The notes beneath the pieces are model-generated. The model was not told where the DNA came from, did not search any database, and was given only the letters and a program-made list of their open reading frames with translations. The translations under genes and the position numbers were made by a program. Positions 49,149-52,198 of a DNA stretch of 64,000 nucleotides are shown piece after piece; within the stretch, counting starts at the first letter, position 1, and every line of letters starts with the position of its first letter. The DNA comes from Escherichia coli (GTDB lineage: Bacteria; Pseudomonadota; Gammaproteobacteria; Enterobacterales; Enterobacteriaceae). The stretch lies in the NCBI RefSeq assembly GCF_003334335.1, contig NZ_QOWQ01000020.1. One strand, written 5' to 3'.

Positions 49149-50804
49149 ATGGAATTTTCGTTTTCACCCAAACGTCTTGTTGTTGCTGTCGCCGCCGCTC
49201 TTCCTCTCATGGCCAGCGCAGCAGATACCCCGTCAACTGCCACCGCACGCAAAGGCTTTGCCGGATACGATCACCCAAACCAGTATCTGGTTAAACCGGC
49301 GACCACTATTGCCGACAATATGATGCCAGTAATGCAGCATCCGGCGCAGGATAAAGAAACCCAGCAGAAGCTGGCAGAACTTGAGAAAAAAACCGGTAAG
49401 AAACCGAATGTGGTTGTTTTCTTGCTGGACGATGTGGGCTGGATGGACGTCGGTTTTAACGGTGGCGGCGTGGCGGTGGGTAACCCTACACCAGATATCG
49501 ACGCCGTTGCCAGCCAGGGGCTGATTTTAACTTCGGCGTATTCTCAACCAAGCTCTTCCCCAACCCGCGCCACCATTCTCACCGGACAATACTCCATCCA
49601 CCACGGCATTCTGATGCCGCCAATGTACGGGCAACCGGGCGGGCTGCAAGGGTTAACCACGCTGCCGCAGTTGCTGCACGATCAGGGCTACGTCACTCAG
49701 GCCATCGGAAAATGGCATATGGGGGAAAACAAAGAGTCGCAGCCGCAGAACGTTGGCTTTGATGATTTCCGTGGCTTTAACTCGGTGTCTGATATGTACA
49801 CCGAATGGCGCGACGTTCACGTCAATCCGGAAGTGGCCCTGAGTCCGGACCGTTCTGAATACATCAAGCAATTACCGTTCAGCAAAGATGACGTTCATGC
49901 GGTGCGCGGCGGCGAACAACAGGCCATTGCCGACATTACGCCGAAATATATGGAAGATCTGGATCAACGCTGGATGGACTATGGCGTTAAGTTCCTCGAC
50001 AAGATGGCGAAGAGCGATAAACCATTCTTCCTCTACTACGGCACTCGTGGCTGCCACTTCGATAACTACCCAAATGCGAAATATGCGGGTAGCTCTCCGG
50101 CACGCACCTCGTATGGCGACTGCATGGTGGAGATGAACGATGTGTTCGCTAATCTGTATAAAACACTGGAGAAAAACGGTCAGCTTGATAACACGCTGAT
50201 CGTCTTTACCTCCGATAACGGACCGGAAGCCGAAGTACCGCCGCACGGACGCACCCCGTTCCGTGGTGCGAAAGGTTCGACCTGGGAAGGCGGCGTTCGC
50301 GTACCGACTTTCGTTTACTGGAAAGGGATGATCCAACCGCGTAAATCTGACGGTATTGTCGATCTGGCAGATCTCTTCCCTACCGCGCTGGATCTGGCAG
50401 GGCATCCTGGAGCGAAAGTGGCGAATTTAGTGCCGAAAACCACCTTTATCGATGGTGTGGACCAGACATCCTTCTTCCTGGGAACAAATGGTCAGTCTAA
50501 CCGTAAGGCCGAGCACTACTTCCTCAACGGTAAACTCGCTGCTGTGCGTATGGATGAGTTCAAGTATCACGTCCTGATTCAGCAACCTTACGCTTATACC
50601 CAGAGCGGATATCAGGGTGGATTCACCGGCACAGTAATGCAAACGGCGGGATCGTCGGTGTTTAACCTCTACACCGATCCGCAGGAAAGCGACTCCATCG
50701 GCGTGCGCCATATTCCGATGGGTGTACCGCTACAGACCGAAATGCACGCGTATATGGAGATCCTGAAAAAATATCCACCACGCGCGCAGATTAAATCTGA
50801 CTAA
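49149..50804 (+). CDS. aslA: arylsulfatase-family protein AslA (Ser-type signature)
   Basis: 551-aa ORF with signal peptide and sulfatase signature [11 protein letters not shown]. Confidence 0.88.
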
Positions 50805-50842
50805 GCCGGCGCTATCGCTGAGATCTGCCTTTGCCGGATGCG

Positions 50843-50947
50843 ATGCTGACGCATCTTATCCAGCCTACAGAACGCTGCAATTTATTGAATTTGCACGATC
50901 ATGTAGGCCGGATAAGGCGTTTACGCCGCATCCGGCAATCAACCGCA
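50843..50947. repeat. BIME with two inverted REP units and an internal A/T-rich core (RIP-like)
   Basis: GCCGGATGCGATGCTGACGCATCTTATCCAGCCTAC ... GCTGCAATTTATTGAATTTGCACGATCAT ... GTAGGCCGGATAAGGCGTTTACGCCGCATCCGGCA between convergent aslA and aslB. Confidence 0.7.
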
Positions 50948-50962
50948 GGCGGCCGCCGATTT

Positions 50963-52198
50963 CTACTTACTCACCACCAGCAAATGCGCATGCATAATGT
51001 CGCTGGCCGGGCGACCGTGCGCCAGCAAATCAGCCATTGCTTTAAGATATGGCGGTAGATGGCGGAAATAACGCTGATACCCGGCACACAAATAATTCAG
51101 TCCCGGTTTGCCGCTGGCATCGAGCATGAAGCGGTGTTTCGGGCAGCCTCCCCAGCACGCTTTTAACACGTTACAACTGCGACACTGCGCCGGTAACTGC
51201 TTAAATTTATCTTCACCAAACGCCTGCTGTTGCGGGGAATCGATCATTTCTGCAATTGTTTGCTGGTGCATATTCCCCAGCCGATATTGCGGATAAACAT
51301 AGTGATCACAGGCGTAAACGTCGCCGTTGTGCTCAACAATCACCGAGCGCCCACAGGTTGGCTGATGATGGCAAACCGCACCCGGCGCACCGACAAAATT
51401 GGCAAACGCCCATTCGATATTCATCACGAAAATCTTGCCGACGTCGCGTTTGATCCAGTGGTCGAATATCGCCACCAGAAACTCACCGAACTCCTCGGGG
51501 CGCACCGACCATTCCGTTAGCTCACCCTGAATATCACCAGGCGCATGTAACTTAAGTCCATCGCGGGCAGTTGTTTCATCAGCCAGGCGCTCGACCACCG
51601 GAATAAACTGGATGAATTCGACTCCCGCATCGCACAAAAAATCATATACCTGCAACGGTTGCTGCGCGCTGGTGCGATTAACGCAGACCAGCACGTTATA
51701 GTCGACATGATGTTTTTGCAGGAGCGTCAGGGCACGCATCACCAGCTTATGCGTGGGTCTGCCACCTTTAGTCACGCGATATTGATTGTGGATCTCAGGC
51801 GGGCCATCCAGCGATAAACCAACAAGAAAATGATGCTCCGCGAGAAACGCGCACCATTCGTCATCCAGCAGCACGCCGTTAGTCTGGAAGCTGTTACTTA
51901 TCTTCCTGCCAGCACCATATTTCGCCTGTAGCGCTACGGCACGGCGGTAAAACGCCAGCCCGAGTAGCGTTGGTTCGCCGCCCTGCCAGGTAAAAGCCAC
52001 TTCGTTTTGCGGTTCGCTGGCAGCGATATAGTGACGGACATACGCTTCCAGCGTGTCATCGTCCATATGCGTGACTGGCTTTTCGCGGTAAAGGGATTGT
52101 TTTTCGAGATAAAAACAGTAGTCACAGTTCAGATTACAATCGGAACCGCTCGGTTTCGCCATCACATGAAAAGCACGCGTTGGAACCTGTTGCAGCAT
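50963..52198 (-). CDS. aslB: anaerobic sulfatase-maturating enzyme homolog (radical SAM/SPASM)
   Basis: 411 aa from MLQQVPTRAFHVMAKPSGSDCNLNCDYCFY (CX3CX2C radical SAM motif plus C-terminal Cys clusters); track ORF starts 10 codons upstream. Confidence 0.85.
   Translation of the reverse strand: MLQQVPTRAFHVMAKPSGSDCNLNCDYCFYLEKQSLYREKPVTHMDDDTLEAYVRHYIAASEPQNEVAFTWQGGEPTLLGLAFYRRAVALQAKYGAGRKISNSFQTNGVLLDDEWCAFLAEHHFLVGLSLDGPPEIHNQYRVTKGGRPTHKLVMRALTLLQKHHVDYNVLVCVNRTSAQQPLQVYDFLCDAGVEFIQFIPVVERLADETTARDGLKLHAPGDIQGELTEWSVRPEEFGEFLVAIFDHWIKRDVGKIFVMNIEWAFANFVGAPGAVCHHQPTCGRSVIVEHNGDVYACDHYVYPQYRLGNMHQQTIAEMIDSPQQQAFGEDKFKQLPAQCRSCNVLKACWGGCPKHRFMLDASGKPGLNYLCAGYQRYFRHLPPYLKAMADLLAHGRPASDIMHAHLLVVSK

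Follow-up and report, generated by a model that had tools for sequence, protein, structure and literature searches.

We analyzed a 64,000-nucleotide stretch of Escherichia coli DNA (contig NZ_QOWQ01000020.1 of RefSeq assembly GCF_003334335.1), referred to below as the window, around the gene pair aslA and aslB. The pair is best read as a sulfatase and its maturase. AslA is predicted to be an exported sulfatase that has serine (Ser136) instead of cysteine at the position that becomes formylglycine, AslB would be the radical S-adenosylmethionine (SAM) enzyme that oxidizes this serine, and the two genes would have separate promoters, with an A/T-rich, H-NS-binding spacer upstream of aslA. We consider this joint model likely to be correct. 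The two genes are as follows:

49149-50804, plus strand: aslA, an open reading frame (ORF) with an ATG start encoding 551 amino acids, annotated as aslA in E. coli genomes.
50963-52198, minus strand: aslB, an ORF with its ATG at 52198 encoding 411 amino acids, annotated as aslB in E. coli genomes.

The original prediction, made from the letters of the window without database searches, had described the genes as convergent; both ORFs lie at the predicted positions, with a 158-bp gap between them. A longer, TTG-started aslB ORF extending to 52228 in the mechanical listing is disfavored, since all orthologues start M-L/Q-Q-Q. The gene order in this segment is hemX-hemY-glmZ-aslA-aslB-(proM-leuT-hisR-argX)-thrP, and E. 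coli K-12 MG1655 has the same locus and order with no relevant difference. MG1655 labels the products "putative sulfatase AslA" (b3801), "putative anaerobic sulfatase maturation enzyme AslB" (b3800), and the small RNA (sRNA) GlmZ (b4456). Over 6.5 kb the two sequences are 99.8% identical, with two mismatches and one 12-bp indel, and an ST167 strain is 100% identical to the window across this region. The indel is in hemX (~47220), in a Pro-Ala repeat near the HemX C terminus; the HemX ORF of the window has 397 amino acids. Annotation or publications for E. coli K-12 already cover the gene pair, its family assignments, and glmZ, and the locus is therefore of low value as a discovery. No searchable paper stated the Ser-type status or the substrate of AslA; presumably EcoCyc or UniProt describes AslA as Ser-type.

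AslA matches the sulfatase signature (C/S)-x-P-x-R-x4-T-G at the catalytic formylglycine position:

49554-49586, plus strand: sulfatase signature with S136 (codon TCT, 49554-49556), placed by alignment to Cys69 of human arylsulfatase A (ARSA) and Cys111 of PsFucS1.

Residue 69 of ARSA lies opposite Ser136 in the HMMER alignment and is itself Ser in the aligned chain, 1E1Z, which we take to be the C69S mutant of ARSA. Ser136 also pairs, in a second HMMER alignment, with the Cys of the C-T-S-S-R signature of PsFucS1 (PDB 7AJ0); according to the PsFucS1 paper, this residue, Cys111, is the catalytic one. Among the 120 best database homologues, the formylglycine column contains only Cys (84 sequences) or Ser (34), P138 and R140 are invariant, and the (C/S)xPxRxxxxTG signature is strictly conserved. 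The predicted Ser in place of Cys is confirmed by the two structural alignments and by this column. Close relatives of AslA have Cys at the Ser136 column, and a single base separates Ser TCT from Cys TGT. The comparison of species loci described below shows the enterobacterial AslA clade to be a Ser-type branch within a mostly Cys-type family.

AslA contains no alternative Cys signature. Its only cysteines are C302 and C325, and a Cys elsewhere as the true nucleophile is ruled out, since neither is in a CxPxR or any other signature context. A second S-x-P-x-R match, at S315 (SSPAR), was ruled out as the formylglycine site: it aligns to a noncatalytic segment of PsFucS1, and we regard it as coincidence because its first position is unconserved (consensus R). 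The metal ligands D94, D95, D356, and N357 and the catalytic residues R140, K188, H190, H303, and K375 are all present and are conserved in at least 118 of 121 aligned sequences. Across Escherichia species, the ratio of nonsynonymous to synonymous substitution rates (dN/dS) of aslA is 0.018 to 0.037. An inactive pseudo-enzyme, which the original prediction had named as the outcome that would overturn it, is at odds with this complete set of metal-binding and catalytic residues and with a dN/dS that rounds to 0.02 to 0.04. Since there is no other Cys signature and the metal and catalytic residues are intact, AslA appears to be a normal, constrained Ser-type sulfatase of the S1 family.

Family searches agree with this assignment. 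The sulfatase domain PF00884 is precomputed for the 100%-identical protein cluster (P0001), and 79 sulfatase sequences in the PDB match AslA at an E value of ≤1e-3. The closest solved structure is PsFucS1 (7AJ0; E value, 3e-101; residues 52 to 544). Judged by nearest structure only, the SulfAtlas subfamily would be S1_13, that of PsFucS1; representatives of other subfamilies match at 1e-41 or worse. Four NCBIfam equivalog models match AslA, all far under their cutoffs (the best, NF010322, at 106 bits versus 481), and no equivalog assignment is possible for this reason. The shortfall against these arylsulfatase and choline-sulfatase models says nothing against S1 membership. By eye, approximately residues 1 to 24 (ending PLMASA|AD) look like a Sec-type signal peptide with no twin-arginine motif.

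AslB passes the NCBIfam model for anaerobic sulfatase maturases, TIGR03942, with 518.3 bits against a cutoff of 349.45; on NF010308 it scores 468.5, just under the cutoff of 484. Its SPASM domain matches TIGR04085 with 66.9 bits (residues 282 to 371). DynA (203 bits) and other models of maturases of ribosomally synthesized and posttranslationally modified peptides (RiPPs) give strong subthreshold scores. Two regions of AslB carry the predicted iron-sulfur cluster ligands:

52115-52138, minus strand: radical-SAM motif C21-N-L-N-C25-D-Y-C28 (CX3CX2C), from alignment to 4K36.
51086-51373, minus strand: SPASM region with the eight auxiliary [4Fe-4S] ligands C276, C282, C297, C339, C342, C348, C352, and C371, together with D298, from alignment to 4K36/4K37.

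The match to 4K36, the anaerobic sulfatase-maturating enzyme (anSME) of Clostridium perfringens, has an E value of 4e-64 over residues 12 to 391, and 11 of 11 cluster cysteines align. The CX3CX2C motif and C-terminal Cys cluster noticed in the original prediction are thus borne out one for one by the ligands of 4K36 and by the TIGR03942 score. The dN/dS of aslB across Escherichia is 0.05 to 0.09. We concluded that AslB, as far as its sequence can tell, is a bona fide member of the anSME family. In the mechanism described for anSMEs, a 5′-deoxyadenosyl radical takes the C-beta hydrogen of the target Cys or Ser, and electrons leave via the two SPASM clusters (PMC7771511). Published support for such an activity of AslB is indirect: overexpression of E. 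coli AslB has been reported to raise the activity of recombinant human Cys-type sulfatases (Almeciga-Diaz 2017, as cited in PMC11215262).

Formylglycine-generating enzyme (FGE) handles Cys only; radical-SAM maturases handle Ser. We examined 80 loci with AslA homologues from one-genome-per-species collections, scoring the residue in the formylglycine column and the neighboring genes:

Ser-type loci (n = 16): AslB-like anSME at 15, immediately downstream and convergent; FGE (PF03781) neighbor at 0.
Cys-type loci (n = 64): anSME within 10 kb at 3; FGE (PF03781) neighbor at 15.

The association of Ser with anSME has a Fisher P value of 2e-12, uncorrected for phylogeny. A deltaproteobacterial locus (L048; 76% identity to AslA) is among the Ser-type loci with an anSME. 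The proposed pairing of a Ser-type sulfatase with a radical-SAM maturase is therefore found well beyond the window, with an anSME adjoining 15 of 16 Ser-type loci versus 3 of 64 Cys-type loci. This covariation supports AslB as the probable maturase of AslA, in line with the known Cys/Ser rule.

These observations suggest the following mechanism. AslA would be a Sec-exported periplasmic type I (S1) sulfatase whose nucleophile is made posttranslationally, by conversion of Ser136 to C-alpha-formylglycine. Because the oxygen-dependent FGE acts on cysteine only, Ser136 must be oxidized by a radical-SAM/SPASM enzyme. The oxidation would occur in the cytoplasm, on the unfolded AslA precursor, and would be supplied by AslB, in which C21/C25/C28 would hold the SAM-cleaving [4Fe-4S] cluster and the eight C-terminal cysteines the two auxiliary clusters. 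We infer that AslB converts Ser136. The aslA and aslB genes would have separate promoters, with aslA transcribed from the 424-bp spacer, divergently from the constitutive glmZ promoter, and H-NS on the spacer probably keeps aslA expression low under laboratory conditions. Our best guess for the substrate of AslA is a sulfated glycan, because its closest characterized relative desulfates fucoidan oligosaccharides.

The region upstream of aslA contains the following features:

48518-48724, minus strand: glmZ sRNA gene, matching Rfam RF00083 (GlmZ_SraJ) with 218.4 bits (gathering threshold, 60; E value, 4.7e-57) over the full model, positions 1 to 214.
48523-48552, minus strand: stem of the glmZ intrinsic terminator, a hairpin followed by a T-run.
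48725-49148, no strand: divergent glmZ/aslA spacer, 424 bp, GC content of 0.325, identified by composition and as a published in vitro H-NS binding region.
48731-48760, minus strand: glmZ sigma-70 promoter, ATGTTA-N15-TGGCATAAT, the single exact match in the window to the published mapped promoter.
48764-48793, plus strand: candidate aslA promoter, TTAACA-18-TGTAAT, listed in PMC3946193; single exact match in the window; predicted leader of ~350 nucleotides (nt).

The glmZ gene lies 424 bp from the aslA start and is transcribed away from it, with the same 424-bp spacer in MG1655; glmZ is listed in MG1655 and not in the RefSeq annotations of other strains made by the NCBI Prokaryotic Genome Annotation Pipeline (PGAP). 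Since glmZ is directly to the left of 48725, the spacer is a divergent glmZ/aslA control region and not simply the upstream region of aslA. Göpel et al. 2011 mapped and mutated the glmZ promoter and found that sequences upstream of −40 are dispensable and that GlrR does not bind the fragment (PMC3045617). As the glmZ promoter needs only 40 bp, ~385 bp of the spacer are left for an aslA promoter and leader, and the spacer should contain both. The candidate aslA promoter is a weak prediction because the glmZ motif given in the same source (PMC3946193; TTGAGA...GATGAT, at 49093-49066) is not the promoter mapped by Göpel et al. A consensus promoter scan of the spacer found sites no more frequently than in shuffled sequence, and the only small ORFs in the spacer are short and unconserved. 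Neither GlrR sites (TGTC-N10-GACA) nor a sigma-54 promoter was found in the spacer of the window or in 10 other aslA-adjacent glmZ spacers, in agreement with the findings of Göpel et al. for Escherichia.

The GC content of the spacer, 0.325, compares with 0.528 for the window, and across the 64 kb only 0.33% of segments of this length (424 bp) have so low a value. The original prediction of a strongly A/T-rich region upstream of aslA stands in this respect; its length is 424 bp and not 425 bp, glmZ and its promoter had been missed, and the genes themselves are not A/T-rich (GC content of 0.532 for aslA and 0.527 for aslB). Because the coding GC content is average, the locus is not a low-GC island. 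A spacer GC content of 0.31 to 0.36 is kept in Escherichia, Kluyvera, Superficieibacter, and MGYG-HGUT-00110, with sequence poorly conserved between genera. Composition is kept and sequence is not, as would suit a role that depends on composition, for example binding of H-NS. A published genomic SELEX (systematic evolution of ligands by exponential enrichment) table marks the aslA/glmZ spacer "HNS," denoting in vitro binding (PMC3946193). This mark fits silencing of aslA but is not proof of it, and searchable papers yielded no data on derepression in an hns mutant or on in vivo H-NS occupancy of the spacer. We infer that H-NS silences aslA in vivo.

Several points weigh against the joint model. 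AslB may not serve AslA alone, because aslB is kept everywhere despite loss of aslA: the interior of aslA is present in 3,698 of 5,426 complete E. coli genomes and has no match in the other 1,728 (~32%), whereas aslB is present in all 5,426. One strain, NZ_CP074756 (locus L002), carries a deletion allele when aligned to the window:

49288-50866, no strand: segment missing in the aslA-deletion allele, 1,579 bp.

This allele retains 139 bp at the 5′ end of aslA, and its aslB is intact; PGAP calls a 138-bp "arylsulfatase" remnant. E. coli K-12 also has a second Ser-type pair, YdeN (S-G-P-S-R, residue 132) and YdeM (CX3CX2C at residue 12), encoded at MG1655 positions 1579633-1582524 (locus L085), and these paralogues could cross-mature. 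Since ydeN has ydeM beside it, the universal retention of aslB is not obviously explained by YdeN. Convergent genes exclude cotranscription, so coregulation of aslA and aslB is not guaranteed, and both products are still "putative" in MG1655. In the cross-species comparison, a Ser-type Martelella locus (L077) has no anSME in its flank, which ends 268 bp away at a contig end. The covariation may rest on no more than two or three independent evolutionary events, since Enterobacteriaceae account for 14 of the 15 Ser-type loci with an anSME. The H-NS mark, lastly, comes from an in vitro SELEX screen, and aslA and aslB themselves have normal GC content.

On this basis, AslB might not be, or not only be, the maturase of AslA; its main client could be YdeN, a Cys-type sulfatase, or a nonsulfatase peptide, with YdeM or another enzyme maturing AslA. 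The genome counts, the intact aslB ORF in the aslA-deleted strain, the absence of an operon, the existence of the paralogue YdeM, and the strong subthreshold RiPP maturase scores of AslB all favor such a reading, as does the published statement that E. coli maturation systems are incompletely understood (PMC8379841). Against it, an AslB orthologue adjoins nearly all Ser-type AslA loci, including the deltaproteobacterial one, and few Cys-type loci, and AslB exceeds an equivalog cutoff only for the sulfatase-maturase model. Retention of aslB may simply reflect recent loss of aslA, before decay of aslB, or it may reflect a second client. We consider it unlikely that AslB is not, or not only, the maturase of AslA and has its main client elsewhere. 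The less demanding proposal, that AslB has some client or role beyond AslA (another sulfatase, or a nonsulfatase peptide as in related SPASM enzymes), strikes us as rather doubtful. A different objection is that AslA might use an unmodified serine nucleophile, like other members of the alkaline phosphatase superfamily, which would make the label "Ser-type" misleading. One report describes a Ser-type sulfatase, produced in E. coli and in vitro, that was apparently active although no maturase was evident (PMC8379841). We consider this explanation very improbable for AslA, given that strict conservation extends over the full (C/S)xPxRxxxxTG signature and every catalytic residue that formylglycine chemistry requires, that near relatives are Cys-type at the Ser136 column, and that Ser alleles accompany anSME and never FGE.

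The regulatory part of the joint model has its own competitor, in which the spacer is an ordinary divergent promoter region, comprising the glmZ and aslA promoters and a leader, without silencing, and low aslA expression reflects the lack of an activator or inducer. The constitutive glmZ promoter does take up the first 36 bp of the spacer, E. coli intergenic regions are generally A/T-rich, and genome-average coding GC content is not that of a classic low-GC foreign island; in E. coli K1, aslA mRNA responds to RpoE and to LL-37 (PMC9147696). In contrast, a GC content in the lowest 0.33% of windows over 424 bp, the SELEX mark in PMC3946193 noted above, and the presence of ~385 bp of A/T-rich DNA beyond the glmZ promoter, with composition kept across genera, argue against an ordinary promoter region. 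We regard this explanation as a genuine possibility, though on balance a doubtful one.

Comparison with known systems places AslA and AslB among recognized sulfatase-maturase pairs. Likened by description, Klebsiella AtsA/AtsB is the prototype, a Ser-type periplasmic S1 sulfatase with a neighboring radical-SAM/SPASM maturase, as proposed for AslA/AslB. Klebsiella atsB and atsA form one operon, according to the title of Murooka 1990 (cited in PMC8379841); aslA and aslB, by contrast, converge and would each have a promoter of their own. PsFucS1 of Pseudoalteromonas (S1_13) has the same catalytic residues as AslA, is Ca2+ dependent, and is active on fucoidan oligosaccharides and para-nitrocatechol sulfate (pNCS); unlike AslA, it is Cys-type (Cys111, C-T-S-S-R) and was matured, although poorly, without an anSME. 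The C. perfringens enzyme anSMEcpe (PDB 4K36-4K39) aligns end to end with AslB and shares all the ligands of the three clusters, and D298 of AslB is the equivalent of its D277. The native client of anSMEcpe is a Cys-type sulfatase, and AslB differs from it by ~20 extra residues around 200 to 220 and a longer C terminus. YdeN and YdeM resemble AslA and AslB as a Ser-type sulfatase and anSME pair, with YdeM 41% identical to AslB. Their genes, in contrast to aslA and aslB, are codirectional, adjacent, and operon-like, and YdeN is only 27% identical to AslA.

Two further features flank aslB:

50805-50962, no strand: aslA-aslB gap, 158 bp, with palindromes of the repetitive extragenic palindromic (REP)/bacterial interspersed mosaic element (BIME) type, recognized by inverted repeats, a subthreshold match to Rfam naRNA4 (REP-derived), and a predicted fold of −76.6 kcal/mol.
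52318-52339, minus strand: terminator of the argX-hisR-leuT-proM tRNA operon, from a terminator scan; the tRNAs are at 52345-52781.

The REP/BIME repeat explains why the gap gives dozens of scattered BLAST matches per E. coli genome. The position of the tRNA terminator leaves ~120 bp (52199-52317) for a promoter of aslB itself. An O157:H7 genome (locus L084, 5374-5686) carries two tRNA-Leu genes in this tRNA operon, compared to one in the window and in K-12. Occasional, independent insertions of insertion elements were observed in both aslA and aslB, with IS1 within aslA in NZ_CM129855 and ISApl1 (IS30-like) within aslB in NZ_CM173464. In E. coli ST131 (B2 lineage; locus L083, 830-1420), an extra ORF for a 196-amino-acid hypothetical protein lies between hemY and glmZ/aslA, lengthening the hemY-aslA interval by 591 bp.

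The spacer contains two repeats. A perfect 7-bp inverted repeat, GTCATCA-TTT-TGATGAC, is at 49111-49127 and precedes the Shine-Dalgarno sequence of aslA by ~10 nt; Kluyvera lacks it. Pairing in this repeat survives a double change in E. albertii, and the changes in strain E69 are compatible with G-U pairs; in ST131 and in O157 one pair is broken, for which reason a claim of conserved structure is too weak. The repeat may act as a hairpin in the leader or as a site for a protein. The other repeat, tandem-like and direct, consists of two copies of CTTCCTGAGT with 15-bp spacing at 48802-48826, just downstream of the predicted aslA promoter. Only one other part of the window is as A/T-rich as the spacer: positions 31762-32756 (GC content down to 0.309), containing yigF/yigG between corA and rarD. 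This stretch is at least 80% covered in just 2,962 of 5,426 genomes, some of which have IS1 there. In Kluyvera, MGYG-HGUT-00110, and Superficieibacter (loci L009, L010, L011, L014, and L015), the aslA-adjacent glmZ spacers carry a −10 element of the CATAAT/TAATAAT type. The sigma-70-only glmZ arrangement of Escherichia and Klebsiella seems to reach these genera, because GlrR sites and a sigma-54 promoter are absent there. An ancestral GlrR/sigma-54 control region might have been displaced when aslA-aslB came to lie beside glmZ.

The substrate of AslA, the conditions under which aslA and aslB are expressed, and the maturation of AslA by AslB in vivo are long-recognized questions. If aslB is under purifying selection on branches without aslA, AslB must mature something else. 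Within this one close-knit sulfatase family, the covariation of Ser with anSME and of Cys with FGE cleanly exemplifies a rule that was already known and does not establish a new one. The aslA gene has repeatedly been listed as invasion associated, in K1 strains with respect to brain endothelium and in isolates from inflammatory bowel disease by cosegregation with invasiveness. For this reason, the presence/absence polymorphism of aslA, its dependence on a maturase, and its possible sulfated-glycan substrate are of practical interest.

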